Below are positions 19,045 to 60,468 of a stretch of 64,000 nt of DNA, piece by piece; the stretch's first letter is position 1, and every line of letters starts with the position of its first letter. The notes beneath the pieces were generated by a model, which saw nothing but the letters and a program-made list of their open reading frames with translations, was not told the DNA's origin and ran no database searches. The DNA is from Azolla caroliniana (taxonomy: Eukaryota; Plantae; Polypodiophyta). A program made the translations under genes and the position numbers. The stretch is from contig JBHGNT010000008.1 of the NCBI GenBank assembly GCA_043228905.1, positions 21,266,001-21,330,000 of the forward strand, given 5' to 3'.

Positions 19045-19508
19045 TGTTGAGAATCAAGCTCAACCTATTCTAGTGTGTGAACACAACTTTTGAGAATCTA
19101 TGAGCACTCAAAGGTCAAAGGTCACCACTACTTTCTACACATTAACTATGTGTCATAGAATCACATTCTATGACACATAACTAATGAGTTCCATATTCCC
19201 AATAACTAATGAGTTTCCACATTCCCCACGGTTCTAGAGAGAGAGTGGGTGTTTTAGTGAGAGAATGTAGAGAGAGAGTGACCTTATATAAAGCACCCCC
19301 CTCCTACTTTGTAATGTGTTGGTTAATCTCCTTTGTAATATTCATATTGTTATAGTTGTTCTCCACTTCCTAATACATACATCTTTTTGAGTATTTCATT
19401 TTTCCTATCTATGTATTTCCTCTCCTCTCCTCTTTCCACACACACACAGACACATAACACAAATCCTTAATCTATTCCACTGCATAGAATCACACTCGAT
19501 TCTTTACA
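19045..19508 (+). repeat. 3' LTR of copia B family
   Basis: TGTTGAGAATC...TCTTTACA; homologous to 9685-10120. Confidence 0.9.
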
Positions 19509-21014
19509 TCCCACTCCAGATATTGATTTGTGTCCCTCAGTGTCATATATCACACACTCATCAAGACTTTATCAAGCTCCAAGATCAAGGCTCTTTTTTC
19601 GACTTCTAATGGTTTAGGTTTCCATTCCTATAACTGAGCCTCTGTTACACCAATTACTGGTAGCACACGATCAATTTCAATCAATTGAGGTTCTATCGGC
19701 ACAATTGGTGTCCTTTTCCTCTTCAAACCCCTAGTTAACTGTGTTGGGCCTGGCTTCACATTTTGGTGCTCTTGTATTGTCGACTTAGTCATTAGCTCAG
19801 TGCATGTTGATACTGATCTGGTCGATATCAGCCCACTGGTATCACATGTTGCATCTACCTGCAAAATCAAATCATCTGTGCAACATGCTTGATCAACTTG
19901 CGAGACCAGATCATTTGTGTCAATTGCTACATCTACTTTCAAGATGTGGCCCTCAAAACATGCAACAACATCAACAGTTTCCACACTGCCATCGGCCTTA
20001 GGAGCAATAGATTCAAACCCTTTAGACTCTGCAACATCAGAAAACACCAACATATTCATACTCACAAAGTAATTAATAGTCTCACAAAACAACATAATGA
20101 ACATGAAATATTTTCCATCATAGAGCAACATGAACATAATTATCGTGGAGAAACATCATAGAGTTCCATTACATAATGTGGATCAAGCAACAACCAATCT
20201 GAGGTTTTACTTGTCCAAATAGATCGTAGTAAAACTTCATAAAACCCTAGGAAAATCGCTAACAATCATATCCCACTAATAAGTATTTCGCTCCAATTCA
20301 AGAGCCCCTTGACCGAGTAACTGTTCTTGTCCCCGATCGTGGCCCCTTCTTCAACCTTTTTCTAACTGGTTGCCCATTTAGCCTTGCTTCTTTGACCCAT
20401 TGTGCAAGTGTGTCCTCCTTCGACAACCTTTCCATCACCTCAGCAGCGGCTTGCACGTCAGCCGCATCTTTCGCTAGCTTTTCCAATACAATGCGATTTG
20501 TTTAGACATTATCAGTAGTTAGGCTCAGTGGGTGGAATCAAGGTTTTGGGATTTGAAGAAATGTTGCATCAAGTGTTCAAAAACACTATTGTTGTGAACC
20601 TCAGATTTACATGTTATTTCTAATATTTCATGGCTTTTCACATCGTTGCCTAATTCAGTACCATCTTCCAAAAGAATAGGGTGGAGCTTATCTGAAGGAT
20701 ATGTGATAGCAGGACTCTTACTTTCAGCCACATTAGCAACTATCTCCTCATTGGTTGCAGCCAGCACCAGACACCTCATGTGCCCTCCTTAATCCACAAG
20801 ATTCCACAACAACATGGTCACTAATTAGCTACATCTTAGCTAACTAGCTATTCTTCTAGACTATGACAGTAGCTAATTAGCTACCACTGAGCTAATTAGC
20901 TACTTCTCTTAGGTATGGTACTAGATGATTAGCTACCACTTAAGTCGTTGGCATTTGTTGTTATTGTTTGTTAATTAGCTACCACTTAGTTAAATGATTA
21001 AGTCGAGCTTAAAT
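19509..21014 (-). mobile_element. Older, decayed copy of the Sola2-like element, left piece (HAD-like cargo gene fragment, 168-aa ORF homolog, start of palindrome array)
   Basis: ORFs 19628-20137, 20298-20486 and 20525-20779 are diverged homologs of 26729-27862 and 28033-28539; AGCTAATTAGCT units from ~20819. Confidence 0.85.
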
Positions 21015-21018
21015 AGAA

Positions 21019-21043
21019 GGGTGAAAGCATGCGAGTGGAAACA
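21019..21043 (+). repeat. Left TIR (25 bp)
   Basis: GGGTGAAAGCATGCGAGTGGAAACA. Confidence 0.92.
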
Positions 21044-21371
21044 ATTAGCTATGTCCTTGACATAGCTAATTAGCTATGCAAAAAGCTACCATTGATAAAT
21101 AGTCATTTTAGTAAAAAGCCATCATTAATAAATTAAGTATGCAAAAAACTACCATTGAAAATACTAGAGTGTTTTAATTACATATGTAAATGAGTGCCAT
21201 AAATGTGCAACATAAATTGATGTGTGCACCATAAATGTGTACCATAAATTATATATCGAATTCCTAGGTCCATTATGCATGATCCTTTGCCACATCACGT
21301 AGGCCATCTCTAGTTGAGTACTGTGGGTTAGTTGCTACCACTGTTGCTAAACCCTATCGAGTCCACCTGCC

Positions 21372-22190
21372 GCCACTCTACACTGAGGGGCCGCTACTGT
21401 GCGTTCCAAGCATCATCAAAGAGCTGCTCAATCTGACAGGGTTCTCTTCTCTGTGACACTCTACACTCAGGGGCCACTACTGTGCATTCCAAGCATCATC
21501 AAAGAGCTGTTCAATCTGACGGGGTTCTCTTCTCTGTGCCACTCTACACTCAGGGGCCATTACTGTGCGTTCCAAGCATCATCAAAGAGCTGTTCAATCT
21601 GAGGGGGTTCTCTTCTCTGTGCCACTCTACACTCAGGGGCCATTACTGTGCGTTCCAAGCATCATCAAAGAGCTGTTCAATCTGAGGGGGTTCTCTTCTC
21701 TGTGCCACTCTACACTCAGGGGCCGCTGCTGTGCGTTCCAAGCATCATCAAAGAGCTGTTCAATCTGACGGGGTTCTCTTCTCTTTGCCACTCTACACTC
21801 AGGGGTTGCTACTGTGCGTTCCAAGCATAATCAAAGAGCTATTCAATCTGACGGGGTTCTCTTCTCTTTTCCACTCTCACTCAGGGGCCGCTACTGTGCG
21901 TTTCAAGCATCATTGGTAACTGTTCAATCTGACGGGGTTCTCTTCTCTATGCCACTCTATTCTCAAGTGCCTTCTATGTGCGTTTCAAGCATCATCGGTA
22001 ACTGTTCAATCTAACGGGGTTCTCTCCTCCATTGCCATCATTCTATACTCAGTTGCCACTACTGTCCAGTCCCTGATTGCTTCCACATTTCGATTTGACG
22101 GAGTTCACTCATCCAACGGCAACATTCTACACTCAGTTGTTGCCATTGGTCGGTCTTGGATCGCCTCCTCAACTGTTGGATCCAACAGAG
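21372..22190 (+). repeat. 83-bp tandem minisatellite (~9-10 units, degenerating rightwards) upstream of the transposase
   Basis: Unit GCCACTCTACACTCAGGGGCCATTACTGTGCGTTCCAAGCATCATCAAAGAGCTGTTCAATCTGA(C/G)GGGGTTCTCTTCTCTGT; ORF-track starts recur every 83 nt (21399, 21482, 21565, 21648, 21731, 21814). Confidence 0.95.
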
Positions 22191-22360
22191 TGAAATCCTC
22201 TACTGTTCGGTCTTGGATTGCAATAACTTTTCTGTCTATTGATTATCTTGTGTATTGTTGTGTCTAATCTTGTGTATTGTGTGGAATATTTTTGTGTATT
22301 GTTGTTGCCCATAGCCATCTTTAATACTTGTTTTTTTTTCTGGAAATTTAGGGTTTTAAC

Positions 22361-25300
22361 ATGTCTAGCCAAATGGAAGGGGAAGAAGGGTGTTTAGAAT
22401 TACCCCTCAATGATCATAAGGATAGGGATGATGTTATCAGGACACAACAAGCCATACGAAACTATTGGGCAGAAAAAAAAAGGAAACATCGTCAATTGTT
22501 GAAGGATACGAAAGCCACACTAAGTAAAGGTAAGGATAGTTTAGCTGAGAATGTAAGTAATGCGACTACCATCATAGAGAGAAAGGTTGTAGACTATTTC
22601 AATGTTCAAACCAAGCACATCAGCAATGAAGAAAAGAAGGTAGTACTTTATGGAATATGTAATGATCCATCGATAAAGGACTTAGTTGATTGTGATGGTC
22701 TTAATGCAAACATATCATCTATTTTAGTAAATAATCTTCGTAATAGTTTCGTATCCATGAGCAGGTTAGAAGATGATCTTGTCTTAAAAAGGTCTAGTCT
22801 AATGATGTTACTTAATAGTGATGTTGACGATATAAACATCAGTGAGCTATCTAAGGTAATTGGTGTTAGTAGAAAAACAGTGTACAATACAATGAACCGT
22901 ATAATTTCCTCGGGTGAAGGAACTAGTCTACTAAAGCTAACTACAAGATGTAAGCCAATGACACCCATAACATTTGAAATCAAGGATGTAATCACAATGT
23001 TTTGGACTAATGAGAGTAGGGTTTCACCCAATAAAAAGGATTTATGCAGGAAACGTGTTGGAAGAAATCAATACGAGGAGCATCCCATTCATCTTCTTGA
23101 TGTACCTCAGGTATTTACATTTATCTCAACATTTGTTTTGACTCTACTCGGAAAGTTAATTAGCTCAGTTAGCAGAAAAGCTAATTAGCTTATCAGTTAC
23201 ATTTACCTCAGTTAGCTACTAGGATCGCTACTACATAGGTAACTAGCTACTCTCAATAGTTACTACCATGATAGCTAATTAGCTATTCTCAATAGCTAAT
23301 TTAGGTACTACCAGATAATTAGCTGTACTGCTAGCTAGTTAGCTATCATGGTAGCTAGTTAGCTATTTCGTTATTACCAGCTAATTAGCTACTAGGAAAG
23401 CTAATTAGCTACCATGATAGCTAATTAGCTACTATGATAGCTACTACATAGGTAACTGGCTACTCTCAATAGCTACTACCATGATAGCTAATTAGTTAGG
23501 ATAGCTAATTAGCCACCATTATAGCTAATTAGCTACTAGACCAGCTAATTAGCTACCATGATAGCTAATTAGTTACTAGGACAGCTAATTAGCCACCGTG
23601 ATAGCTAATTAGCTACTATACCAGCTAATTAGCTACCATGATAGCTAATTAGTTACTAGGAAAGCTAATCAGCCACCATTATAGCTAATTAGCTACTAGA
23701 CCAGCTAATTAGCTACCACGATAGCTAATTAGCTACTAGACCAGCTAATTAGCTACCATGATAGCTAATTAGTTACTAGGAAAGCTAATTAGCCACCATG
23801 ATAGCTAATTAGCTACTAGACAAGCTAATTAGCTACCATGATAGCTAATTAGTTACTAGGAAAGCTAATTAGCCACCATGATAGCTAATTAGCTACTAGA
23901 GCAGCTAATTAGCTACCATGATAGCTAATTAGCTACTAGGACAACTAATTAGCTACTAGGACAGCTAATTAGCTACCATGATAGCTAATTAGCTACTACG
24001 ACAGCTAATTAGCTACCATGATAGCTAATTAGCTACTAGAATAGCTAATTAGCTACTAGAATAGCTAATTAGCTACCATGATAGCTAATTAGCTACTACG
24101 ACAGCTAATTAGCTACCATGATAGCTAATTAGCTACTAGGACAACCAATTAGCTACTAGGACAGCTAATTAGCTACCATGATAGCTAATTAGCTACTAGA
24201 ATAGCTAACTAGCTACTAGAATAGCTAACTAGCTACTAGAATAGCTAATTAGCTACTAGGATAGTTAGCTAGTTACGAGAATAACTAATTCCCCTTTATT
24301 ACGTAGGTCGATTTATTTATTAGGTTCAAACGAATGCATCCAACTATCAAAGTTCAACTACGAACATTCGAGTCTCTTAAGCCACACTTTGTGAGACGCT
24401 TAAAGGATCGATACACATGTTGTTGCATTTACCATGTACAGATGGGTTTTCTGAAGGACTCTGTTAATCTACTACGTCACCATAGCGCATCCCTAACTAA
24501 TACAGTTTGCACATGTGGGTGCCCAATCTGTCGATCAAGCCCGCAAGAGGAGTGTAAATCATCTGAGCACGTTATCTCTTCCATGAGTTATTTATTAGAT
24601 TCAATATTGTGTCCGAGAGAATCTGACGCTATCTTCCATATTCATAAATGTGTCATGGGTTTATGTCAAGATTGTGGCCCTACTAGATTTAGGTGGTGTC
24701 CAAATGAATTGAGTAGTGAAATATTGATCTCTGTGAAGTTATTTGAGTCAGTGAACACCAATTTCGAAGGAAAGGTGTGTAAAAGAAAGGATCTAGTTCG
24801 GAAGATGCTTAAACCAAGGGATTTGGTGTCTCTGTTTGTAGTATCTCTAGGAAAGTTCATTAAACACAACTTCATTTATTCATGGCAGGCCCATCAGTTT
24901 AAGACTTGCATATCTGATTTCCCAAATGATGTAGTAGTCTCAGTAGTAGATTTCGCAGAGAATTATACTTTCAAGCAGCAGAATGAAATTCAATCTATGC
25001 ATTGGTGTTCAGTTCAGGTAACCATTTTTGTGCACATAACATATTTTCGAGTTTCAGGTGATGTTAAAAAAGTAATTCATTTCTTTATTTCCGATGATAA
25101 GAAGCATGATACCTTGTTCGTCCAACACTGTTTTAAGTTACATTGGCAGTGGTTATTAGCTCAACGTTTGGAGCTTACTCAACATTGGGTCTGGTCTGAC
25201 GGAGCTGCGTCACAATTCAAGGCTCGACGTCCATTTTATTTTGTGGGGAGGTATCCTGCTATAACAGGTTTGGAGATGAGATGGAATTTTTTTGGGTCTG

Positions 25301-26148
25301 GCCATGGTAAAGGTGAACATGATGGTGCAGGGGCTGTTATAAAGCGGGCACTTACCCATGAACAACTAAAGACAGATGGTGTGCACATGAATTGTGCATC
25401 ACATGTAGTTGAATTTTTAAGAACAAATATGTCGACGAGTGCCACAGGTGTTTATTCCTCGCAAGTTCGAGATATCAAACGTGAATTTTGGGAAGTGAAG
25501 ATAGATGAAGTAAATAGGGAGAAGACCTGGGAGTGCCAAGGAATTCCCGAATTGCGATCTCTGCATGCTGTTCGCGGTTATTCCAGGTTGGATGGTCATT
25601 GTATTGCGGTTAGAGAATTGACTTGTTTTTGCTTCCATTGTGTGCAGGGAAATTGGAGATATTGTCTAAACAAAGCATACATTCAGAATTGGGAGTATCA
25701 CACTCTGAATGATAAGGAAGCAGTTGATGGAGAAACAGGGCAGAATGCTGACTTCACATATGAGGGACTTGGAGATACTTTGAGTGATGTCCTGAACGTT
25801 GGGGATAACTTCGCTGTAAATGCTGAAGAAGGCAATTCAGAGGGTGCTGATTTCTATATATTAAAGTGCACGGTTAGTAAACAGTGTGCAAGGCAGAATA
25901 TTGTAGATGCATGGGGAAATTTTGTATCTGCCGGGACATTCTACATCGAAGGCATTTTTTATGCAAAACTAGATGACTACGAATATGTGTACAGGCTGTT
26001 AGAAGACAAACCAGCGGCGTATATGTACTCTCATTTGGTCAGATGCATCAACGTCCCAATGTCAGAATACAATAGCTGCTCCGGTTTATACACTGTTGGT
26101 GCTAATGTGTATGAATGTATTTACAATAGTATGCCATGGAATTTGTAG
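22361..26148 (+). CDS. Sola2-like DDD transposase, two exons (22361-23110 + 24307-26148, ~863 aa)
   Basis: Donor CCTCAG|GTATTT and acceptor ACGTAG|GTCGAT join in frame (..LLDVPQ-VDLFIRFKRMHP..); HTH-like ISELSKVIGVSRKTVY; TCCCIYH and Cys clusters; catalytic-type VVDFAENY, WSDGAASQFK, GHGKGEHDGAG; same splice sites in the second copy. Confidence 0.88.
23160..24290. repeat. Intronic array of the palindrome TAGCTAATTAGCTA
   Basis: Dozens of copies at ~20-bp spacing separated by short linkers (CCATGA, CTAGGA, CTAGAC). Confidence 0.97.
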
Positions 26149-26583
26149 CTACAAGTAGCACTTACCATGTTCTCTTGTAAAACAAACATGTATTTCGCGA
26201 AAACAGATCAATAAATTCGTTTGGAATCAATTTCTTGTATACAGTCTGCTTTCTGTGCTTCTTTCTCAATAAAATCATGTCTTTTTTGTTAAGTTTTAAG
26301 TTATAAGTTATAGAGAAATAGTCATCAGTAGCTAATTAGCTGTACAAATGTATTTACAATAGTATGCCATGGAATTTGTAGCTACAAGTAGCACTTACCA
26401 TGTTCTCTTGTAAAACAAACATGTATTTCGCGAAAACAGATCAATAAATTCGTTTGGAATCAATTTCTTATATACAGTCTGCTTTCTGTGCTTCTTTCTC
26501 AATAAAATCATGTCTTTTTTGTTAAGTTTTAAGTTATAAGTTATAGCGAAATAGTCATCAGTAGCTAATTAGCTGTACAAATG
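26114..26583 (+). repeat. Near-perfect 233-bp tandem duplication of transposase stop and 3' UTR
   Basis: AATGTATTTACAATAGTATGCCATGGAATTTGTAG.. at 26114 and 26347. Confidence 0.95.
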
Positions 26584-26728
26584 CAGCTAATTAGCTGTCA
26601 ATAGCTAAATAGTCATCAATAGAATGAAATCAACAATCTGCAACATATTCCTCAAATTACACAGTAGATAAGTACAGTGGGAACAAGTAATTAAATTCTT
26701 CATTGAATAATGTCATCTCTTTACATAT

Positions 26729-27862
26729 TTATAAATTACCATTGGAAATGTCTACAAATCTCCTATAAACAGCTAAGCTCTTGCTAGTCAGTGGAACGAG
26801 TCTACATATATTATCCGCATATTGAGCTCGGTATGGAGTCCACAACCATGCACCTAGTTGGCAGCTCACTGTTTGCACCAGGTACTGTTCAGGCATTTCC
26901 TCGGGTAGAATGAGACAGCATCTCCGAATATTGAAGTAGTGTCGGAAATGTTCTGTATCCAAAATCAATGTATTGTCAGCATTATATTCAGGCCAAGTAG
27001 CCCAAAAATCAGAAAGTCTCTTGAATCTTGCAGCTTCCATCTGCTCACAATTTTCTCGTGCCCATTGACCTTTAAAACGACTTCGCCATTTTGGGAAGAA
27101 TCTTGCCAAACACTTCCACACATCTGATTTTGGTTTTTCACTCCAAATAAACAAATCAAAGTACTCCACAGCCCACTCTAGAAACTGATTTGCGTCCCTC
27201 CTTGGCTGCATATATCTCACACTCATCAAGACTTTATCCAGCTCCAAGATCAAGGCTCTTCTTTCGACTTCTAGTGGTTTAGGTTTCCATTCCTGAAACT
27301 GAGCCGCTGTTACACCATTTTCTGGTAGGATACGATCAATCTCAATCAGCTCAGGTTCGGCTGACACAACTGGTGTCCTTTTCCTCTTTAAACCCCTAGT
27401 CGACTGTGTTGGGCCTAGCTTCACATTCTGGTGCTCTTGTTTTGTCGACTTAGTTATCAATCCTTGGATTACCTCAGTGCATGTAGCTACTGTTCTGCTC
27501 GATATCAGTCCACTGGTATCACATGATGCATCTACCTGCAACACCAAGTCATCCGTGCTACATGCTGCATCTACCTGCAACACCAAGTCATCTGTGCTAC
27601 ATGCTGCATCTACCTGCAACACCAAGTCATCCGTGCTACATGCTTGATCAACTTGTGTGACCAGATCACTTGTGTCAGTTGCTACATCTACTTTCAAGAT
27701 GGGGCCCTTTAAACATGCCGCAACATCAACAGTATCCACACTGCCATTGGCCTTACGAGCAATAGAATCAAACCCTTTAGACTCTGCAACATCAGAAAAC
27801 ACCAACATATTCACACTCACAAAGTAACTAATAGTCTCACAAAACAATATCCTGAACATCAA
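26729..27862 (-). CDS. Cargo gene: FCP1/SCP (NIF)-type HAD-fold protein with degenerate catalytic motif; probably spliced upstream (acceptor near 27783)
   Basis: RRALILELDKVLM (cf. LDLDETLV), QFLEWAVEYFDLFIWS, FKRLSDFW..EYNADNTLILD; N-terminal 13-aa repeat CSTDDLVLQVDAA x3; basic LKRKR. Confidence 0.65.
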   Translation of the reverse strand: MMFRILFCETISYFVSVNMLVFSDVAESKGFDSIARKANGSVDTVDVAACLKGPILKVDVATDTSDLVTQVDQACSTDDLVLQVDAACSTDDLVLQVDAACSTDDLVLQVDASCDTSGLISSRTVATCTEVIQGLITKSTKQEHQNVKLGPTQSTRGLKRKRTPVVSAEPELIEIDRILPENGVTAAQFQEWKPKPLEVERRALILELDKVLMSVRYMQPRRDANQFLEWAVEYFDLFIWSEKPKSDVWKCLARFFPKWRSRFKGQWARENCEQMEAARFKRLSDFWATWPEYNADNTLILDTEHFRHYFNIRRCCLILPEEMPEQYLVQTVSCQLGAWLWTPYRAQYADNICRLVPLTSKSLAVYRRFVDISNGNL

Positions 27863-28032
27863 AGAGTTTCAGTCATAGAACAACACTCTTCAAATTATCT
27901 TGGAAAAACATCATAGAGTTCCATTACATAATGTGGATCAAGCAACAACCAATCTGAGGTTTTACTTGTCCAACAGGATAGTAAAACTTCATAAAACCCT
28001 AGCAAAATCCCTAAGCTAACAATCATATCCAA

Positions 28033-28539
28033 CTAAACAGTATTTCGCTCCACTACGTCTGGGCCCCTTGACCGAGTAACTGGTCTTGTTCCCGATCGTG
28101 GCCCCTTCTTCAGCCTTTTTCTGGTTGGTTCCCCATTTAGCCTTGCTTCTAGGACCCAATGCGCAAGTGTGTCCTCCTCCGACAACCTTCCCATCGCCTC
28201 AGCAGCTAATTGCACATCAGTCGTTTCTTGAACTAGCTTTTCAAGTACAGAGGGATCTGTTTGGACATTTTCAGTAGTTGGGCTCGGTGGGGTGGAATCA
28301 AGGTCTTGAGACTCGAAGAAATGTTGCATCAAGTGTTCATAAACACTGTTGTTGTGAACCTCAGTTTTACATGTTGTTTCCACTATTTCATGGCATTTCA
28401 CATCGTTGCCTAATTCAGTACACTGTTCCAAAAGAATAGGGTGCAGCTGATCTGAAGGAGATGTGATAGCAGGACTCTTACTTTCAGCCACATTGGCAGT
28501 AGTATCCTCATCTGTTGCAGCATCATCAGCACCAGACAC
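28033..28539 (-). CDS. Element-borne 168-aa acidic/basic ORF, possibly an upstream exon of the HAD-like gene
   Basis: Conserved in the older copy (20298-20779); NLS-like RKRLKKGPR; no recognised domain. Confidence 0.5.
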   Translation of the reverse strand: MSGADDAATDEDTTANVAESKSPAITSPSDQLHPILLEQCTELGNDVKCHEIVETTCKTEVHNNSVYEHLMQHFFESQDLDSTPPSPTTENVQTDPSVLEKLVQETTDVQLAAEAMGRLSEEDTLAHWVLEARLNGEPTRKRLKKGPRSGTRPVTRSRGPDVVERNTV

Positions 28540-28591
28540 ATCATGTGCCGTCCTTAATCCACAGGATTCTACAATAACATGACAGTTATTT

Positions 28592-30358
28592 AGGATAGCT
28601 AATTAGCTACTTTACTAAACTATGGTAGAAGCTAGGATAGCTAATTAGCTAGTACGATAGCTAATTAGCTAGTATGATAGCTAATTAGGTACTTTACTCA
28701 ACTATGGTAGTAGTTAGGATAGCTTATTAGCTACTAGGACAGCTAATTAGCTGCCAGTAGCTAATTAGCTACTAGGATAGCTAATTAGCTGCCAGTAGCT
28801 AATTAGCTACTAGGATAGCTAATTAGCTGCCAGTAGCTAATTAGCTACTAGGATAGCTTATTAGCTACTTTACACAACTATGGCAGTAGCTACTAGGATA
28901 GCTAATTCGCTAGGATAGCTAATTCGCTAGTAGGATAGCTAATTAGTTGCCAACAGCTAATTAGCTAGTAGGATAGCTAATTAGCTACTAGGATAGCTAA
29001 TTAGTTGCCAGTAGCTAATTAGCTAGTAGGATAGCTAATTAGGTACTTTACTCAACTATGGTAGTAGCTAATTAGCTAGTAGGATAGCTAATTAGGTACT
29101 TTACTCAACTATGGTAGTAGCTAATTAGCTAGTAGGATAGCTAATTAGCTACTAGGATAGCTAATTAGCTGCTAGTAGCTAATTAGCTACTAGGATAGCT
29201 TATTAGCTACTTTACACAACTATGGCAGTAGCTAATTAGTTACTAGGATAGCTAATTAGTTGCCAGTGGCTAATTAGCTAGTAGGATACCTAATTAGCTT
29301 TTTTACACAACTATAGTACTAGCTAATTAGCTAGTACCATAGCTAATTAGCTACTAGGATAGCTAATTAGCTAGTAGGATAGCTTATTAGCTACTTTACA
29401 CAACTATAGTAGTAGCTAGGATAGCTAATTAGCTACTATGGTAGCTAATTAGCTACTTTACTCAACTATGGTAGTAGCTAGGATAGCTAATTAGCTACTT
29501 TACTAACTATGGTAGTAGCTAGGATAGCTAATTAGCTACTTTACTAACTATGGTGGTAGCTAGGATAGCTAATTAGCTACAATGAAAGCTAATTAGCTAC
29601 TTTCTCAACTATGTAGTAGCTAGGATAGCTTATTAGCTACTAGGACAGCTAATTAGCTGCCAGTAGCTAATTAGCTACTAGGATAGCTAATTAGCTGCCA
29701 GTAGCTAATTAGCTACTAGGATAGCTTATTAGCTACTTTACACAACTATGTCAGTAGCTAATTAGCTACTATGATAGCTAATTAGCTAGTAGGATAGCTA
29801 ATTAGCTAGTAGGATAGCTAATTAGTTGCCAGTAGCTAATTAGCTAGTAGGATAGCTAATTAGCTATTTTACACAACTATGCTACTAGCTAATTAGCTAG
29901 TACCATAGCTAACTAGCTACTAGGATAGCTTATTAGCTACTTTACACAACTATGTCAGTAGCTAATTAGCTACTATGATAGCTAATTAGCTAGTAGGATA
30001 GCTAATTAGTTGCCAGTAGCTAATTAGCTAGTAGGATAGCTAATTAGCTATTTTACACAACTATGGTACTAGCTAATTAGCTAGTACCATAGCTAACTAG
30101 CTACTAGGATAGCTTATTAGCTACTTTACACAACTATGGCAGTAGCTAATTAGTTACTAGGATAGCTAATTAGTTGCCAGTGGCTAATTAGCTAGTAGGA
30201 TAGCTATTTAGCTTTTTTACACAACTATGGTACTAGCTAATTAGCTAGTACCATAGCTAATTAGCTACTAGGATAGCTAATTAGCTAGTAGCTCATTAGC
30301 TGCCAGTAGCTAATTAGCTAGTAGGATAGCTAATTAGAAAAGACTAAGCTTATTAGCT
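28592..30358. repeat. ~1.8-kb array of TAGCTAATTAGCTA palindromes with higher-order repeats
   Basis: Direct reading; linkers CTAGGA, GCCAG, CTTTACACAACTATGG. Confidence 0.97.
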
Positions 30359-32039
30359 ACAGTATGGTATACCTGTTTGTTTTCTCCACTCATTTGGTAG
30401 AGTTGTACTGCAATCTCCCAAACAGAATGCAGCAATTCGACAGGCATGTTGAAAACAAAGCAGATGGTATGTGTGGTTGCATGGTTGTAGGTGAACCAAC
30501 AAAGACGCAGTTTTGTCCTCCACACCTAACCCGCAAGCGATGCAACGTGCTTGAACTGTCAATAAATCATTTTCTGGTTCTACTTCATTTGGTAAGGGAG
30601 CAAGAATGTTCAGGTCCAAATCCTGTTTGGTCCTTACCATTCCCTCCACAAAATGTAGCTTCTTCTTAAGGCAGCTAACTACCTGTTCTTGATGAATGTA
30701 TTGTTCCTTCAACGCAACAGAGAAATTTACCGATTAATTATTCTTGTTGTTGAAAGATACACCAACTTTGCTCAGGAATCGTTAACTTACTTGAAGCTTA
30801 TCCAAATTGTAATCTGCAACAGTATTTACACCTAGAAGGTCCAGGTTCATTGAAAGAACCTGGATCTCTATTTGCAGTTCTATTTTACGCTGGGGATCCA
30901 GTGGCCCCTCTAATTCAAGCTCCTGTTGCGCAACCTATTCAAGATAATGCTTGATTAGCACATTTTACCCGTTATTTATAACACAATCACATACCAGCAA
31001 AACAATAGTTACCTGAATCTTATTTCTAATTGTTGTAACAGCAGAAGTAACTTTGCTCTCCATTGCAGAAGCCATTGTGGCTTTCTCTAAATCAGTCTTA
31101 AAAAATGCCAATGTCTCACAGGCTTCATGGACATTTTTTAGCATATAGCTAACCAATGTCTCACCTGTATCATCGACATTGGCTTTCCTTGGGTGTCGGT
31201 GTGGTGTATGCCCCCGGTCTTGCTGGGAGTCGGCAGTTGCATCAACAGCTGCCATGCTCCAAAATCTGTCTATTTTTTGTGCCAAGGTCCCCATCTTTCG
31301 ACATCTTTTTACCGATGCCTCACCATAGACTGCCCAAGCTACCCTATACATTTCAGGGTCTCTAGATTCCTTCGCTGTTTTGCAGTACTCATATGCAAAT
31401 GCTCTAGCAAATGAAACTGACAACTCATTGTTGACTGGGATCTCCTGATGAACTTTCTGGTGCAGTCTCATGCAGTCATCGTACAAGTCGGCTCGTACAT
31501 GCTTCAGCTTGACCTTGCCTTTGACTCTAGGCACTGTATATACTGTCATCCAGTCTATATCACTGATCAATTTATCACTTAGGACAGCAGGGTCAACACC
31601 CTCGAGTGACAGACCATAGGTGTTGTGGAAGTCCTCCTTTGTCTCGCAAAATTTTGCGAAGTTTAGCACTCTCGTATACGGAGGAACGAGCCATCTGAAA
31701 TATCATTACAAAAATAAGAAATAGTGCAAAATCAGAATATGTGAGAATCAAAAACCCCAATCAACAACAACAAAAATGGTGCAAAATCTTTAACTTAGCA
31801 AATCAGAAACCCTAATCATAATTTGTAATCAAATTTCTAATTTGTAATCAAAATTTGTAACCAGAAACCCTATTCAGAAATTCTAATCAGAAATTTATAA
31901 TCAAAAACCCTAATCAGAAATTTCAATCACAAACCCTAATCAGAAATTTCAATCACAAACCCTAATCACTAAAGACAGGATTAAACACAAAAAAAGTAAT
32001 ATAAACACACCTGTTGCTACTCCCCGATTTGTGAGACAT
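30353..32039 (-). CDS. Cargo gene: spliced protein with C-terminal RING-H2-like finger
   Basis: Predicted exons 32039-32011 (ATG..AACAG|GTGTG) and 31694-31013 (TTTCAG|ATGG ... ATTCAG|GTAACT) give MSHKSGSSNRWLVPPYTRVLNF..; distal ORF 30353-30712 has CIAC..LQPCNHTYHLLC..CLGDC; middle exons unresolved. Confidence 0.6.
31800..31970. repeat. Cluster of telo-box-like AAACCCTAA motifs in ~27-bp repeats, inside the predicted intron
   Basis: AAACCCTAATC at ~31807, 31905, 31931, 31957; AAACCCTATTC at ~31865. Confidence 0.7.
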
Positions 32040-32493
32040 CCTTGTATGGGACTCCAAGGACTTCGCCCTATTCGATTTTGGGGAAATATGAATCGGCACC
32101 AAAGTTCAAACAGTAGTCAAGAAGAAAAAACAAATGTTTGGGGTTTCTGTAACTGAAACATACTTGGACGATGATCGAGCGGGTTCTGTGTTGTAGCTCT
32201 CAATCTGCAATGTCGATTTTTTGCTGTTGCGGGAGCTACGTCTGCGTTCGTGCTCTGAGTACTCCATCTGCGTTCAAAATCAGACTTAGGCTAAACAGGA
32301 AATTGATGACATTGAAGTCGACCTTAGATGATGGTGATATTCCCCAAGTTCCACTACGTCTGAAACAGAAGTTCAAATATTTGAGTTTTTTCATAAATTA
32401 GTTTTTCAAATATTTGATTTTCCCACAAGAAAGACTAGCTAAACAAATAGCTAATTAGCTATGGCCATTTTAGTAGCTAATTAGCTATAATAG

Positions 32494-32518
32494 TGTTTCC
32501 ACTCGCATGCTTTTACCC
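32494..32518 (-). repeat. Right TIR (25 bp)
   Basis: Reverse complement GGGTAAAAGCATGCGAGTGGAAACA. Confidence 0.92.
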
Positions 32519-37064: not shown

Positions 37065-39194
37065 TTGGCTTGATGGGTTTAAACCCTACTTTTCCTGAAA
37101 AAAAGACACGTATTAAAGATGGCTATGGGCAACAACAATACACAAAAATAATCCGCAATACACAAGATTATACACAACAATACACAAGATAATCAATAGA
37201 AAGAATAGTTATTCAAATCCAAGACCGAACAGTGGTGGTAATTGTTAGGAAACAGGTCCCTCTGGATGGGAAGTGAGAAGAACAGTGTTGATGAGCAAAC
37301 TCGGTCGAGGCTGAATCCGGATGTGGAGTACCCGACAACGGAAGACCCAGTGAGAACCGGATAACGAGTACCTGACAAGGAATACCCGGTGAGAACCGGA
37401 TGTTGCAGGCCCGATGAGAACCTCTCATCGGATGGAAGGGACATATATGTAAATATGTTCCAGAGAGCTCACTAGGGCTATATTTGTAAATAGCCCGAAA
37501 GTCATATTAGTATAAATATGACCTAGGGCAAACTTAATAGTGATGATGATAGAGTTATTGGTGTAACTTCTGTACAATGTGTAAGAGAGAGAGAGAGAGA
37601 GAGAGCGACATACCGAGATTGTGCCTCTATTGTAACCGCCTGGTGGCGAAGCGAGGGAGCAAGAGGTTGTTGCCCCTGTGCCCCATTGTTGTAACCTTGA
37701 TATAGTGATATTTTGCAGTCTGAGAGCTACCGTGGTTTTTCCCATATATGGGTTTTCCACGTTAACATCCAGTGCACTCTCCTCTTTACTGTTTCGTGTT
37801 TAGATACATCTCTCCACATCCCTGTTTTATGTGATTGTTTCAACGTCTCAGTTGTGGCCGAGCATAGCTTAGGGAGGCGTATTCCTATCAAAGTGGTATC
37901 AGAGCAAAACGACACAGAAAAATGGACGATTCGTTGGGAGCCATGTTCAAGCTCACCAGCTCCAACTATTTAGTGTGGAAGTTGAAGATGAGGGACATGC
38001 TCGTGGTTAAAGATCTTTGGTTGCCGGTTCAGTTCGGGGATAAGAGATCGGACAAAATCAATGCCACGATATGGGAGGTGATGCACATGAAGACAACGAC
38101 GTATATAGGGTGCTTCATCCACATGAGTCTATACAACAACTTCAATGAAGAGAGCAAGGCTCATGAGCTCTGGGAGAAGATGGGCATTATGTTTCAGAAC
38201 AAAAATGTTGTTAATCAGGTTTCGGTATTTTGCAAGCTAGTAAGACTCCGGTACCAAGATGGCTCCAGCATGGCGGAGGACATGAATGCCTTCCAGGGGC
38301 TGATCCACCAGGCAACATCATTGGAAGTACCTCTCGCCGATGAGGTACTAGCACTACTCCTGCTCGGTTCCCTCCCAGATAGCTAGGAGATGTTGGTTGT
38401 CACTTTGGGCAACGCCAGGCCGGAAGGGAAACAGTTATCCCTGGCAAGAGTGAGGTCGAGCTTGCTAGATGAGGAGGCGCGTCGGAAAGACAAGGATACG
38501 AACTCCGACTCCAAAGTGCTCATTACCGAATCGGAACGCGGAAGACAAAGGAACCGTAGTCCCCAGAAGCCGGAGAAGTCGGGGACACGGTCAAAGTCAA
38601 GGGGCAGGCCTACCTGCTTCTATTGCGGTAAGTCGGGACACTTCCAGAAGAATTGTCGGCATTCCGAAAAGACAAGGAAACCGATGGTACCGATTCAAAG
38701 CAGACACCGGATTGGAACGGTAAAGACCGGAGGGGAATAGACTGGAAGGGAACGACGGAAATCGCGGCAAGTGAAGAAGAGTTGATGCTCATCACCGAGG
38801 AGAGTGAGCTAAACCTTGCCGGCGACGAGATGACCTGGGTGGTTGCCTCCGGAGCATCGTTCGACCTTACCCCAGACCGAAAATGCTTCTCATCCTACTC
38901 AGCTGGTGATCACGGCTGTGTCCAGATGGGGAATGAAGGTACATGCCGAATTGTCGGCATAGGAGACGTGTGGTTGAAAACACCAACCGGATGCAAGCTG
39001 CTGCTGAAGGATGTTCGACACGTTCCGGAGGTTTGTCTGAACCTGATATCAGTCGATCGGCTAGATGATGAAGGCTACACGGGTAGCATCCGGAACGGTG
39101 TTATGAAGTTCAGCAAAGGGAGCCTGATTGTGGCTCAGGCCCAGAAGGTAAAATCATTGTACCTGATGAATGCCCGGTTATGCCCAGAAGAAGT

Positions 39195-39978
39195 TGACGA
39201 GAACTCAACGCTCCTTATGTCCAACGCTCGGCCAGAACCGAGCTTCTTTTCATACGCAGAAAACGGGAAACAAATGCACGACACAAAGGAGAGAAAATAC
39301 ACAGGAGGTTTACGTGGAAAAACCCCAAACTAGGGGAAAAAACCATGGCAACCCACAGGCAGCAAACTGTCACTATGTAAGAATGTACAAACAGTGAGTT
39401 CACGGAGGCAACGACCTCATGCTCACGATCTTCGCCACAGGCGGCGGTTACAACAGAGGCAACGACCTCGTTCTCTCTCTCTCTCTCTCTGTACAGTTAC
39501 GCGCTCTCTCTTCTTCTTGCACCAACAAGAAAATGACAACTACGATAACAGTAACTAAAAGGTTTCCCTAAGTCATATTTATACTAATATGACTTTTCGG
39601 CTATTTACAAATATAGCCTCGATGGCCTCTCAGAAACATATTTACGAATATGTCTCTTCATCCGGTTCATACCGGGTCTGCACCATCTGGCTCTCCGTAG
39701 CCGGGTACTCTTCATCCGGTTCATACCGGGTCTGCACCATCCGGCTCTCCGTAGCCGGGTACTCCTCATCCGGTCTTCACCGGGTCTGTATCATCCGGCT
39801 CTCCGTAGCCGGGTACGCCTCATCCGGTTCATACCGGGTTTGGACCATCCGGCTCTCCGTAGCCGGGTACGCCTCATCCAGTTCATACCGGGTCTGCACC
39901 ATCCGGCTCTCCGTAGCCGAGTTTGTTCATCGGCACTATTCTTCTCCCTTCCCATCCGGAGGGACCTGTCTCCCAACA
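39195..39978 (-). repeat. Solo LTR of a related copia family inserted in element D
   Basis: TG..CA ends; perfect TSD GAAGT (39190-39194 and 39979-39983); internal ~57-bp tandem repeats. Confidence 0.92.
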
Positions 39979-40749
39979 GAAGTGAACGTGGCTTCCGACA
40001 CTGCCAGTGAGCTGTGGCACAAGAGGCTGTGTCACATGAGCGAGAAGGGGATGAAGAGGCTTGTAGACGACAACCTCATTCCAGTGAAGAACGTGCACTT
40101 GGAGAAGTGCACTGATTGTTTGGCAGGTAAACAAAATTGGACATCCTTCCGATCGAGGCCACCGATGAGACGTAATGCACAACTAGAGTTGGTGCATACT
40201 GATGTATGTCAAGGGGACACGAAGTCGCATGCAGGATCGCAGTACTTGGTGACGTTCATAGATGACCACAGCCAGAAGCTGTGACCCACACCGTTAAAGA
40301 CGAAGGATCAGGTGTTATCCGTCTTCAAAGAGCTCCACACGAGAGTGGAAAGAGAAACTGGCCGGAAGCTGAAGGCGGTTCGAGCAGATAACGGAGGTGA
40401 ATACCGGGGGCAGTTTGAGAAGTACTGTCGCTCGAAGGGAATCCGGCTTGAATTTACCGTGCCGAAGACGCCGTACCTAAACGGGTTGGCCGAGAGGATG
40501 AACCGGACCATAATGGAGAGGGTCCGGAGTATGCTGGCGCATGCAAAATTACCCAAGACGTTTTGGGCTAAGGTGTTGTCGACAACGATGTATGTGATAA
40601 ACAGATCACCCTCAATGCGCTTGGATGGAGACACACCGTAGAAGGTGTGGACCGGTAATGAAGTGTCCTACCCGCATCTGAAGGTGTTCGGGTGTCTTGC
40701 GTACGTAAATGTTGCTAAGGACCGGAGAGGAGAGTTGGATTCAAAGACT

Positions 40750-43700
40750 TGACAGGAACTACACGCTCCGATGAACACTGCTCGGCCACAACCGAGTTTA
40801 GAATCAAACACAGAAAACGGGAATGAAAGACACGACACAAAGGAGAGAAGAGTACACAGGATGTTTAACGTGGAAAACCTTGAGAGGGAAAAACCACGGG
40901 AGTCCACAGACTCCAAAATATCACTATATCAAAATGATTACAACAGTGAGCTCACGGAGGCAACGGCCTCGCACTCTCGATCTTCGCCACAGGCGGCGGT
41001 TACAACAGAGGCAACGACCTCTTCCTCTCTCTCTCTCTCTATTTACACTGTTACGCGCTCTCTAGTCTTGCACCAACAAGAATGACGACAACCACTTTAC
41101 TAAGTTTGCCCTAAGTCATATTTATACTAATATGGCTTTTCGGCTATTTACAAATATAGCCCTGATGGACTCTTAGAAAACATATTTATGAATATGTCCC
41201 TTCATCCGGTGAGCACTTCTCACCGGGCCTTCACCATCCGACTCTTGTCGGGTACTCCACATCCGCTTTTGGCCTCGGCCGAGTTTGCGCATCAGAATTG
41301 TTCTTCTCACTTCCCATCCGAAGGGACCTGTTTCTTGACAAACTCCCCCTTCACTCCGGCATGGGATGTCTTACTAGTCCAATCCGCTTCCAGCATGCAT
41401 CCAGCTAGTCGGGTATCAGTACTTTGGTCAGCATATCTGAACCGTTCTCGCCGTGTGGATCTTCGTCAGCACGAACTCCTGGTCATCTACTCTTTCCCGG
41501 ATCTAGTGATACTTTCGCTGGATATGCTTCGTCCAGGAATGGTAGGCCGCATTCTTAACAAGGTGAATGGCCCTTTGACTGTCGCAATAGAGCCGGTATT
41601 CATCTTGCCGGATACCGAGCTCTCCGATGAAGTCCTTCATCCATAATATTTCCTTGCCGGCTTCCACAGCCGCCATGTACTCCGCCTCCATGGTTGACAA
41701 TGCAACCGTCTTCTGCAGCCTCGACTACCATGAAACAGCTCCCCCTGCATATGTCATTACATACCCGGATGTAGATCGGCCGGTATCCACATCAGCCGAC
41801 ATGTCCGAATCGGTAAAACCGTCAAGTTGAGGTTTTTCGGAGCTGAATCAGAGACACATATTTGAAGTGCCCTTCAAGTATCAGAGTATCCACTTGACCG
41901 CGTTCGAGTGCTCCTTGTCAGGATTGCTCATAAACCGGCTCACCACTCCAACTGCATATCCTATATCCGGTCGGGTATACACCATTGCGTACATTAAGCT
42001 CCCGATGGTAGAGGCATATGGAACGTTCATCATATCAGCCTTCTCTGCTTTCGTCTTCGGGCTTTGCTTACCAGATAATCTACAGTTTGTCGGGAGTGTC
42101 GATCCAACCAATTTCGCTTCTAACATGTTGAACCGCTGAAGCACCTTTGTCACGTACTTCTCCTGTGACAGCCACAATTGCTTCGTTGGCCGGTTCCGGA
42201 TGATATGCATCCCTAGCATCTGTCTTGCCGGATCCAAGTCTTTCATTGCGAAAGTTCGGTTGAGAGCCTTCTTCAACATCTGTATTCTGGCTTGGTTCCG
42301 TCCGACGATCAACATGTCATCCACATACAGAAGGAGTATCGGGAAGTCGCCTCCTTCGAACTTCTTCACAAACACACAGTGATCGGCCTGCGTCTTGTGG
42401 TACCCTTGATCTGTCATGAAGGAGTCGAATTTCCGGTACCATTGTCAAGGAGCCTGCTTCAGTCCGTACAGGCTCTTCTTCAACCGACAAACCAGGTGCT
42501 CCTTCCCTTTCTCCACAAATCCTTCCGGTTGCTGCATGTCGATCTCCTCTTCGAGGTCACCGTGAAGGAATGTTGTATTCACGTCCAGCTGCTCTACCTC
42601 GAGGTCCATGTTGGCCCTCTATACTCAGCACCGTCCGAATGGAGGTCATCTTTACTACCGGGGCAAATATCTCATCGAAGTCCACGCCCTTCTTCTGTTG
42701 AAACCCCTTGACCATGATCTTGGCTTTGTATCTCGGGGGGTTGCCGGCATCTCCCGGTTTCAACTTCTACACCCACTTATTTCGGAGTGTCCGCTTTCCT
42801 TTCGGCAACTCCACCAATTTGTACATATGGTTCTTATGCAGGGAATCCATCTCATCCTGCATGGCACTTAACCATTTTCTGATGTGGGTGTCATCCTTTG
42901 CTTCTTCGAAGCTTTCCGGCTCTCCCTCATCGGTCAGCCGCACATGCTCTGAATCCGGAAATCTTCGGGGGGCCCTTCTCTCTCTGAGAGGATATCTCCG
43001 TCTTTGGCCTTTGGCAACCGGCTCCACTATTTGATCTTCATCCAAATCCGATTCGGGGTCTTGGCCAATTCCGGTTTCAGCTTCCTCTACTTCTTCTTCT
43101 GCCGGTTCGGTATCCTCACCGTAAATGGCTGGTTCCTCGAGTGCTAACCGGTCTCTTGCCGGTTGTGTCTGCTCATCGTAGAATCGATCCTTACTAGTCG
43201 ACTCGGAGTTCATTATCTTCTTCTCCGACTCCCATTTGGTGAGCGTCTTGTCCTCCATGAATCTTTCTAGCGTGTCTTCGTCCAAGAGTACTGAGGGTGA
43301 TTTGTTTGTCACATATGTCGTCGTCGACAGTGCCTCAACCCAAAACTTCTTGGGTAGTTTTGCGTGCGCCAGCATACTCCGGACCCTCTCCATTATGGTT
43401 CGGTTCATCCTCTCAGCCAACCCATTTAGTTCCGGCGTCTTCGGCACGGTAAATTCGAGCTGGATTCCCTTCGAGCGACAGTACTCCTCGAACTGCCCCC
43501 GGTATTCACCTCCGTTATCTGCTCGAACCGCCTTCAGCTTCTGACCGGTTTCTCTTTCCACTCTCACGTGGAGCTCTTTGGAGACGGATAACACATGATC
43601 CTTCGTCTTCAACGGTCTGGCCCACAGCTTCCGGCTATGGTCATCTATAAACATCACGAAGTATTGCGATCCTGCATGTGACTTCGTGTCCACTTGACAC

Positions 43701-46037
43701 ACATCAGTATGCACCAACTCCAGTGGTGCATTACGTCTCATCGGTGGCCCTAGTCGGAAGGAGGACCGGTTTTGCTTACCGGCCAGACAATCAGTGCACT
43801 TCTCCAAGTGCACGTTCTTCACTGGAATGAGGTTGTGGTCTGCAAGCCTCTTCATCCCCTTCTCACTCATGTGACACAACCTTTTGTGCCACAGCTCACC
43901 GATAGTGTCGGATGCCACGTTCACTTCCTCTGGACATAATCGGGCATTCATCAGCTACAGCGTGTTTACCTTCCGGGCCCGAGCCACAATCAGGCTCCCT
44001 TTGCTGAACTTCATAACACCGTTCCAGATGCTACCCATGTAGCCTTCATCATCTAGCCGATCGGCTGATATCAGATTCAGACGAACCTTCGGAACATGTC
44101 GTACATCCTTCAACAACAGCTTGCATCCGGTTGCTGTTGTCAGCCACACGTCTCCTATGCCGACAATTCGGCATGTACCTTCATTCCCCATCCGGACACA
44201 GCCGTGATCACCGTCTGCGTAGGATGAGAAGCATTTCTGGTCTGGGGTAAGGTGGAACGACGCTCCGGAGTCGACCACCCAGGTCATCTCGTCGCCGGCA
44301 AGTTTTATCTCACTCTCCTCGGTGATGAGCATCAACTCTTCTTCACTTGCCGTGATTGCCGTTGTTCCCTTCCGGTCCGTTCCCCTCTGGTCTTTACCGT
44401 TCCGGTCCAGTGTCTGCTTCGAATCGGTACCGTCAGTTTCCTTGTCTTTTCGGAAGTGCCGACAGTGCTTCTAGAAGTGTCCCGGCTTGCCGCAATAGAA
44501 GCAAGTAGGCCTCCCCCTTGACTTTGACCGTGTCCCCGACTTTTCCCGGTTCTGGGGACTCCGGTTCCTTTGTCTTCCGCGTTCCAATTCTGTAAGGAGC
44601 GCTTTGTAGTCGGAGCTCGTATCCTTATCTTTCCGACGCGCCTCCTCATCTAGCAAGCTCGACTTCACTCTTGCTAGGGATAACCGTTTTCCTTCCGGCC
44701 CGGCGTTGCCCAAGGTGACAACCAACGTCTCCCAGCTATTTGGGAGGGAACCAAGTAGGAGTAGTGCTAGTACCTCATCGGCGAGAGGTACTTCCAATGA
44801 TGTTGCCTAGTGGATCAGCCCCTGGAAGGAATTCATGTGCTTCGCCATGCTGGAGCCATCTTGGTACCAGAGTCTTACTAGCTTCCGAAATACCGAAACC
44901 TGATTGACAACATTTTTGTTTTGAAACATAATGCCAATCTTCTCCCAGAGCTCATGAGCCTTGCTCTCTTCATTGAAGTTGTTGTTTAGACTCATGTCGA
45001 TGAAGCACCGTATGTAAGACTTTGTCTTCATGTGCATCACCTCCCATATCGTGGCGTCGATTTTGGCCGGTCTCTTGTCCCCGAAGTGAACCGGCAACCA
45101 AAGATCTTTAACCACGAGCATGTACCTCATCTTCAACTTCCACACTGAATTGTTGGAGCCGGTGAGCTTGAACATGCCGCCCAACGATTCGTCCATTTTC
45201 TGTGTCGTTTCGCTCTGATACCACTTTGACAGGAACTACACGCTCCGATGAACACCGCTCGGCCACAACCGAGCTGAGAATCAAACACAGAAAAGGGGAA
45301 TGAAAGACACGACACAAAGGAGAGAAGAGTACACACGATGTTTAACGTGGAAAACCTTGAGAGGGAAAAACCACGGGAGTCCACAAACTCCAAACTATCA
45401 TTATATCACAATGATTACAACAATGATCTCACAAAGGCAACGACCTCGCGCTCTCGATCTTCGCCACAGGCGGCGGTTACAACAAAGGCAACAACCTCTT
45501 CCTCTCTCTCTCTCTCTCTGTACACTATTACGCGCTCTCTAGTCTTGCGCCAACAAGAATGATGACAACCACTTTACTAAGTTTGCCCTAAGTCATATTT
45601 ATACTAATATGACTTTTCGGCTATTTACAAATATAGCCCCGATAGACTCTTAGAAAACATGTTTACGAATATGTCCCTTCATCCGGTGAGCACTTCTCAC
45701 CAGGCCTTCACCATCCGGCTCTTGCAGGGTACTCCTCATCCGGTTCTCACCGGACCTTCACAATCCGGCTCTTGCCAGGGACTCCTCATCCGGTTCTCAC
45801 CGGGCCTTCACCATCTGGCTCTTGCCGGGTACTCCAAATCCGGTTCTCACCGGGTCTTCCGTTGTCGGGTACTCCACATCCGGTTCTCACCGGGTCTTCC
45901 GTTGCCGGATACTCGTCATCCGGTTCTCACTGAGTCTTCCGTTGCCGTGTACTCCACATCCAATTTCAATCGAGGCCGAGTTTGCTCATCAGTACTATTC
46001 TTCTCACTTCCCATCCGGAGGGACCTGTTTCCTAACA
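40750..46037 (-). mobile_element. Full-length decayed copia element E, same family as D, inserted inverted into D
   Basis: 5' LTR 45227-46037, PBS 45212-45223, gag 44807-45196, protease WVVDSGASFH, integrase 42767-43951, RT 41881-42417, PPT 41341-41351, 3' LTR 40750-41340; TSD AGACT/AGACC. Confidence 0.95.
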
Positions 46038-59329: not shown

Positions 59330-60468
59330 TCCTAGATTATAGGGCGGCAATAGCTAATTAGCTACATCTTAGCTAATTACCTATTCTTCTTAACTATGGC
59401 AGTAGCTAATTAGCTACCACTCTTGATATTGCTTAGCTAATTAGCTACATCTTAGCTAATTAGCTCCTAGACAATAGATTGGTAGTAGCTAATTAGCTAC
59501 ATCTTGGCTAATTAGCTATTCTACTTAAGTATGACAGTAGCTAATTAGCTACATCTTGGTTAATTAGATATTGTACTTAAGTATGGCAATAGTTGATTAC
59601 CTACCACTATTGATACTGCTTAGCTAGGCAGTATAACATTACATTGTAGCTAATTAGTTGCTATAATAGCTAATTACCTACTACACTTTATACCGCTTAG
59701 CTAATTAGCTACTACACTTTATAACCCTTAGCTAATTACCTACATTGTAGCTAATTAGTTACCACACATTATACGGCTTAGCTAATTAGCTACTACACTA
59801 TAGAATCAAGCAACAATTTTACCTATCAGTTTTCTCCACTCATTTGGGAGAGTTGTATTGCAATCCACCAAACAGACTACAACAATGCGATAGGCATATT
59901 GAAAACAAACGATATGGTATGTGTGATGGCATGGTCATAGTTGTACCAACAGAGTAGCATTTTTGTCCTCTACGCCTAAGCCACAAGCGATGCAACGTGC
60001 TTGAATAGTTAATATATCATTGCCTAGCTCTCCTTTGTTTGGTGAGGGAACAAGAATGTTGAGGTCCAATTCTTGTCTGCTCCTTACCATCGCCTCCACA
60101 AAATGTAACAACTTCTTTAGGCAACGAACTACCTGTTCTTGATGGAAGTATTGTTCCTAGAACGCAGTCGAGAAATTTACCGATTTATCATTCCTTAATG
60201 AGGAAGACAGAACAACAAGAAACAAGAACAACTTACCGATTTATCATTCCAAATTGTAATCAGCGACAATATTTATATGTAGAAGGTCGAGGTTCATTGA
60301 AAGAACCTGGATCTCTGTCTGCAGTTGTATTTTCCGTTGGGAATCCAATGGCCCCTCAATTTGGAGCTCATGTTGAGCAACATGTTCCAAATAATGCCTC
60401 ACTAAGCATATTTTCATGTACAAGTTATTTATAACATGTTACATACTAGCAAAACAATAGCTACCTGA
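59330..60468 (-). mobile_element. Right piece of the older Sola2-like copy: palindrome array (59345-59800) + RING-gene relic
   Basis: 59830-60468 colinear with 30380-31016; array linkers (AGCTACATCTTAGCT, CTATTCTTCT) match 20821-20940. Confidence 0.85.

Follow-up and report, generated by a model that had tools for sequence, protein, structure and literature searches.

The window analysed here is a stretch of 64,000 nucleotides from the fern Azolla caroliniana (assembly GCA_043228905.1, contig JBHGNT010000008.1, positions 21,266,001 to 21,330,000 of the forward strand), and it contains an 11.5-kb DNA transposon with a transposase gene on one strand and accessory coding sequence, here called the cargo, on the other (Table 1; all positions are those of the window). 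The original prediction, made from the sequence alone, described 25-bp terminal inverted repeats (TIRs) beginning GGG and a perfect 4-bp target site duplication (TSD), and comparison of the ends bore this out, as the two TIRs are equal at 24 of 25 bases and AGAA is present on both flanks. A 24-mer of the TIR has three matches in the window against none in 100 shuffles, and the 523-Mb genome contains it 553 times without mismatch. The element is an intact copy of a young, high-copy family of Sola2 cut-and-paste transposons.

Copies were sampled as facing TIR pairs no more than 25 kb apart among the first 100 listed TIR matches, which gave 31 pairs, all of which were examined. All of them retain the cargo exons A0-A2 and are flanked by perfect 4-bp TSDs whose sequence varies from pair to pair, and several copies have internal deletions that take out parts of the transposase or of the cargo exon encoding a NIF domain. 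The transposase is open in 10 of the 31 and all frames are open in five. Twenty-two copies lie at most 1.2% from the window copy and differ from their own majority by a median of 0.30%, so that the recent activity originally predicted can be described as a recent burst of the family. The window copy differs from the young-copy majority at 19 of 6913 bases and, as predicted, its transposase and every cargo frame are open. Queries with distant transposases, cargo and NIF against the same genome brought up no other family among the candidates that were scored.

The two transposase exons join into 863 amino acids (aa) with no internal stop, and the predicted D-D-D triad (D465, D548 and D589; codons at 24949, 25198 and 25321) lies within the motifs DFAENY, SDGAASQFK and HGKGEHDG, with all three aspartates unchanged across 46 homologues. 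Exon 2 has no Pfam match, and the transposase profile has none in the PDB. Named homologues come from Ceratodon, Calypogeia, Cryptomeria, Taxus and Adiantum, and then from fish and sea cucumber, the animal proteins scoring at E values of 3e-18 and 5e-18. At the acceptor of the transposase intron (24304-24306) the window copy reads TAG and the family majority CAG, with the splice dinucleotide intact.

The features of the Sola superfamily are all present, namely a DDD transposase, TIRs and a 4-bp TSD (31 of 31 pairs and the window copy). Termini of the form 5'-GRG are generally ascribed to Sola2; the ends of the window element read GGG. A TSD of 4 bp is stated as a Sola feature in PMC10741241. 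Read by eye, motif by motif and unscored, against Additional file 10 of PMC3627910, the transposase shares DFxENY, Q-x-EIQS-x-HW, SDGAASQ(F/Y)K and W-x-FF...HGK-x-x-x-DG with the Sola2 group of Repbase, and the predicted Sola2 affiliation is thereby upheld; the 4-bp TSD and short TIRs are also common to both. The window element differs from the Sola2 elements described in that source by its 11.5-kb size, by a spliced gene for INWA, RING and either M or NIF parts, and by palindrome arrays in its introns. The TSDs of the family (74% AT, with AWWT in only one of 32) are likewise unlike those of the amoebozoan Sola2 families in PMC3627910. Sola elements have been reported from moss and account for 0.06% of Ceratopteris in a listing (PMC10741241, PMC9033089, PMC6890710). 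Full-text literature searches listed nothing that describes this cargo in a plant Sola2; Repbase and Dfam were outside its scope, and a catalogue entry may exist.

Table 1. Features of the Sola2 element and its cargo, with window positions and the basis of each assignment.
Feature	Position	Strand	Basis
Left TSD, AGAA	21015-21018		Flank comparison
Left 25-bp TIR, GGG start	21019-21043	+	Matched to right end
Whole element, 11.5 kb	21019-32518		TIRs and TSD
83-bp tandem array, 8 copies, 5' of transposase	21372-22029		Repeat analysis
Transposase exon 1, 250 aa, helix-turn-helix (HTH)-like stretch	22361-23110	+	HTH_11 E 5e-5, below Pfam cut-off
Transposase intron, 20-bp-period array of palindrome TAGCTAATTAGCTA	23111-24306	+	Skipped in one putative RNA contig (X2)
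Transposase exon 2, 613 aa, Sola2 D-D-D triad	24307-26148	+	dN/dS 0.14
233-bp tandem duplication at transposase 3' end; palindrome copies in intergenic gap	26114-26583		Repeat analysis
NIF/FCP1-fold exon (open frame reaches 27868); likely alternative last exon	26729-27783	-	Phase-1 acceptor conserved; dN/dS 0.25
Exon M, acidic low-complexity stretch, basic tail; likely alternative last exon	28033-28568	-	Open frame; conserved acceptor and stop
Predicted cargo intron filled with TAGCTAATTAGCTA palindrome array	28569-30372	-	Conserved donor and acceptor
RING-H2-like finger exon (finger from 30544); donor 30372 or stop 30353-30355	30353-30682	-	Weak Pfam matches; dN/dS 0.29
Cargo exon A3, helical, coiled-coil-like	30791-30934	-	5' intron skipped; dN/dS 0.19
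Cargo exon A2, INWA domain (first 140 aa) and helical region	31013-31694	-	dN/dS 0.14 (INWA); putative RNA contigs
Cargo exon A1	32011-32067	-	Both flanking introns skipped in putative RNA contigs
Cargo exon A0, predicted start codon	32164-32267	-	Open frame; intron skipped in putative RNA contigs
Right 25-bp TIR, two palindromes just inside	32494-32518	-	Matched to left end
Right TSD, AGAA	32519-32522		Flank comparison

Five cargo exons on the minus strand, A0 to A3 and the RING exon, join in frame, so oriented that cargo and transposase stand tail-to-tail. Splicing was assessed in putative RNA contigs from one study, which derive from related copies about 95% alike. Of the junctions proposed for checking with the original prediction, those of the first three cargo introns, skipped with GT-AG ends (runs X1 and X2; one also in run X3), and of the transposase intron were found, and the joints from RING to M and from RING to NIF are uncovered. 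The donor at 30372 is kept in old copies, as are the acceptors at 28568 (M) and 27783 (NIF), both in the donor's phase, and phase-1 acceptors occur at the matching exons of three distant loci (L060, L062 and L070). The shared splice phase of M and NIF therefore makes it likely that the opposite-strand coding sequence is a single gene with these two as alternative last exons, rather than the two protein genes originally predicted. The predicted products are open forms of 610 and 783 aa, and an 812-aa form via a short M exon is also open.

Within the NIF exon a linker of 39-bp repeats is followed by the HAD domain (about 27310-26732). The number of these coding repeats (13 aa each; 27521-27644) differs from copy to copy, with resulting open frames of 353, 366, 379, 392 and 405 aa. 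A NIF start at the ATG at 27859 was disfavoured, as the sequence upstream of the conserved acceptor has no synonymous and five non-synonymous changes, and the short stop-ended tail past the RING donor gave no alignment in old copies. At 32164, just before the first cargo donor, the window copy differs from the family majority, again with the splice dinucleotide intact. A contig of run X2 joins 21081 to 32481, skipping 11.4 kb, and a short non-autonomous derivative may exist. The M-like exons of three relatives (L060:7110-7601, L132:1786-2670 and L135:1875-2630) close with an acidic-Pro-Leu motif followed by a basic run and Thr-Arg-Ser, to which the M tail of the window (28033-28200) is loosely similar; by resemblance, this tail could presumably be a chromatin or nuclear-targeting tail.

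INWA, a domain defined here, appears to belong to no known family. The RING-H2-like finger has a C3H2C3 ligand pattern with the last pair spaced by three, and its Pfam matches (E 0.095 and 0.27) are below cut-off. The NIF domain was modelled at a mean predicted local distance difference test (pLDDT) score of 92.5, with a Foldseek match to 3SHQ at E 1e-7 and a profile match at E 4e-17; by both structure and profile UBLCP1 is the best match, then CTDNEP1, SCP and Tim50. It shares fold and profile with these proteins (Pfam NIF) but is transposon-borne, is without a ubiquitin-like domain, has DT for the DD motif and at the HAD nucleophile site reads ELDKV in place of DxDxT. The first Asp is Glu in both young and old subfamilies, and also in two relatives (P0161 and P0178), most others having DLNG. 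As HAD chemistry depends on this nucleophile, its loss makes the NIF domain a likely dead phosphatase. The nearest named NIF relatives are from Ceratopteris and Adiantum, as suits a fern host, a species name being available for four of ten proteins looked up.

Selection was estimated as the ratio of non-synonymous to synonymous substitution (dN/dS) between the young subfamily and the majority of 20 older copies, which are about 88% alike. The INWA (p 1e-9), RING and NIF (p 7e-7) parts are under purifying selection between subfamilies, with values of 0.14-0.29 in the cargo domains (Table 1), so that this proposed check gave a non-neutral result. Exon M (0.58, p 0.07) and the NIF linker (0.51) did not reach significance. 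One of nine non-coding control frames reached p 0.02, and a permutation preserving the substitution spectrum returned the same ranking.

Distant relatives were sought in a metagenome scan, from which 80 of 346 loci were kept. In the transposase tree the window element clusters with L060, L062, L064 and L065 (support 99/99), and a convergent NIF frame is present in L062 (49% transposase identity) and L065 (45%). The loci bearing INWA, whose transposases are 35-42% identical to that of the window, cluster with the Ceratodon protein (97/99). The INWA motif was defined from a convergent frame in L071, and a profile of that family only found pieces in L125, L079, L096/L099, L085, L109/L110, L122 and L130/L133 (E 3e-5 to 0.23), all downstream of the transposase and on the minus strand. 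A broader profile of distant loci, with no cargo-A protein in its training, recovered L075 and L109/L110, which were outside the training set, at E about 1e-17, and placed the cargo-A proteins directly behind the family it was built from (best E 2.5e-5; hhalign probability 59%, E 9e-5). The first comparisons of cargo-A with the L071 profile were weak (probability 1-2%), and rose only with the broader profile.

Of 17 non-redundant loci whose downstream sequence extends to at least 9 kb, 8 have INWA there on the opposite strand, as against 0 of 10 upstream flanks (p 0.012). Close transposases pair with close INWA domains in a Pearson Mantel test (r 0.84, p 0.0005), which was run after a Spearman test. 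RING-like remnants follow INWA in L096/L099 and also occur in L070, with weak scores; the own-family RING profile is not significant (L070, E 1.5), and hhalign gives a probability of 25% (E 8e-4). A C3HC4 RING-like frame also lies on the minus strand 3' of a distant Sola2 transposase in L115 (15033-15794), where no INWA piece was detected. A search for TIRs and TSDs in 48 of the 80 loci gave no convincing ends, and the distant cargo is therefore assigned by position and not by element boundaries. Taken on this footing, the cargo appears to be a long-conserved accessory gene beside the Sola2 transposases of distant lineages. The proposed genome-wide check of TIRs and TSDs (31 of 31 copies with cargo), the selection results and these homologues together agree with the original description of the cargo as stable and non-random.

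Of 57 exact copies of the palindrome TAGCTAATTAGCTA in the element, the cargo intron holds 37 and the transposase intron 17, and three adjoin the TIRs; exons have none, and the spacing is mostly 20 bp. The 26 matches elsewhere in the window all fall within older copies of the family. Tandem repeats occupy the same intron in about 8 of 13 distant loci with different units, that of L060 sharing a TAATTAG core.

The original prediction also held that two other copies in the window carry the cargo. Cargo is present at both places (19506-20940 and 59348-60468), but both are fragments without a transposase, and for this reason the conservation of the cargo rests on the genome-wide copies instead. 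The fragments have the same orientation, one ending and the other beginning in a palindrome array, and may be halves of one older copy split by insertions of about 38 kb. A further older copy lies within 33133-59329 on the minus strand, with its left TIR at 59329, a broken transposase about 89% alike and no cargo seen at its 3' end. It is interrupted by two apparent long terminal repeat retroelements (repeat pairs 37242/47938 and 50020/58854), and long inverted matches in 37900-47900 (89-92% over 0.5-1.1 kb) reveal that a copy of the same retroelement family is nested there in inverted orientation.

VANC proteins, encoded by the VANDAL elements of Arabidopsis, recognise motifs within non-coding tandem repeats, and these motifs vary among related elements (PMC5735166); non-coding tandem-repeat motifs differing between lineages are also found here. 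A VANC-like role is our best guess for the accessory gene: its product may bind the palindrome arrays of the element and in this way serve as a self-addressed regulator, allowing copies to be expressed and to move in a methylating host, a reading that we hold tentatively and place only a little short of an even chance. The INWA domain would be the sequence reader of the arrays, the RING a ubiquitin ligase or an interaction module directed against a host repressor, and the dead phosphatase a decoy or scaffold that binds phosphoproteins, with the 610-aa and 783-aa forms produced by alternative last exons.

Several observations weigh against this role. CG/CHG sites show private C-to-T changes about ten times as often as CHH sites (0.0075 vs 0.0008), and the copies thus bear the mutation signature of CG/CHG methylation; within 400 bp of the arrays the private CG/CHG transitions are not reduced (p 0.66; those at CHH are fewer, p 0.09), and lasting local demethylation is therefore not indicated. 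Because of this signature, any effect would have to be transient or limited to certain cell types. The palindrome adjoins both TIRs, which fits transposase binding. INWA has no match in Pfam or the PDB and none to DUF1985, VANC or PMD, and the structure model of its exon, with a pLDDT of 49.5, is too poor for comparison. The closest relative, L060 (61%), has no NIF within 2.4 kb downstream, the RING-M and RING-NIF joints have no covering putative RNA contig, the Spearman Mantel test is not significant (p 0.11), and the INWA counts are partly circular, the non-circular profile giving L122 at E 0.09 and L130 at E 0.23. Related searches returned little: the INWA exon model had no Foldseek match at E 0.001, the cargo-A profile none in the PDB, and DUF1985 no Pfam match in 23 and 15 proteins. 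In the Atlas, DUF1985 and PMD clusters appeared at 0.80 for a distant INWA domain, which is at chance level and serves as a lead only, with no usable match for the window's own exon; a complex prediction of INWA with NIF (score 0.00) counts neither way.

The arrays could instead be transposase-binding sites and the accessory protein a transposition cofactor, acting as a complex scaffold, in target choice or on transposase level via RING and pseudo-phosphatase, with no direct anti-silencing role. Two-gene elements with a helper protein, such as Harbinger and CACTA, are textbook examples. The HTH-like stretch in the transposase, the palindromes next to both TIRs and the apparent methylation of copies throughout are in line with such a cofactor, as is a 2026 preprint reporting activation of cognate copies by transposases themselves (10.64898/2026.08.24.746577). 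Most of the palindromes, however, lie deep in introns and far from the ends, and PMC3627910 reports no such partner for the animal Sola2 proteins in its alignment, an absence that was not itself searched. We regard the cofactor as possible, if on the doubtful side. A broad effect of the cargo on signalling or protein turnover in the host, with its product serving for instance as a decoy for the phosphorylated RNA polymerase II tail or the proteasome, would need no sequence specificity and would suit a conserved RING and a NIF domain closest to UBLCP1; it seems improbable, as it leaves the lineage-specific arrays unexplained and the most conserved and widespread part is INWA, not NIF. Passive (Pack-type) capture of host sequence, made uniform only by the recent burst, is already largely refuted and is hardly credible. 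The presence of cargo in all young copies is expected anyway because they are 99.7% alike, and exon M and the NIF linker are without significant selection, but the purifying selection between subfamilies, the recurrence of these domains in unchanged order and orientation next to transposases of only 35-49% identity, and the lack of a closer host gene among 150 scored of 464 candidates all argue against capture, as the original prediction had proposed.

The favoured VANC-like role has both parallels and differences among known systems. In common with VANDAL/VANC, the family has an element-encoded accessory protein and lineage-varying non-coding tandem motifs, but VANDAL is a Mutator-like element (MULE) and the window element a Sola, the cargo has no DUF1985 match, and VANC targets lose methylation where the copies here bear its CG/CHG mutation signature and binding is predicted only (PMC5735166). 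The PMD proteins MAIN/MAIL1 with PP7L likewise combine a transposon-associated helical domain, DNA motifs and a phosphatase-like partner, and PMD resembles DUF1985 in models; no sequence homology to them was found, and the phosphatase fold of the window is HAD/FCP1 (bioRxiv 2024.09.27.615353). Cargo is known from other Sola elements, with Fanzor in Sola2 of Dictyostelium and Polysphondylium (PMC3627910) and a ParB-methyltransferase, also on the opposite strand, in Sola1-1_Ec32 of Ectocarpus (PMC12477816). The window cargo is unrelated to that TnpB-like nuclease and to the ParB-methyltransferase, and the window element yielded no enzyme with predicted activity on DNA. A more far-reaching version, which we consider rather unlikely, is that Sola2 of seed-free plants has kept its own counter-silencing module since at least the split of the fern-type and moss-type lineages, in which INWA (perhaps a remote DUF1985/PMD relative) would read lineage-specific intronic arrays and bring a RING ligase together with an alternatively spliced acidic-basic chromatin tail or dead polymerase-tail phosphatase.

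Some genes annotated with 'FCP1 homology' in ferns are likely to be transposon cargo, and INWA is an unannotated domain marking the Sola2 elements of seed-free plants. With near-identical young copies, a long-selected accessory gene and a candidate motif, the question can be tested outside flowering plants by binding assay and transgene. If the counter-silencing module is real, it would add to VANC another system of that kind, independent and far older, working via ubiquitin and a phospho-decoy.

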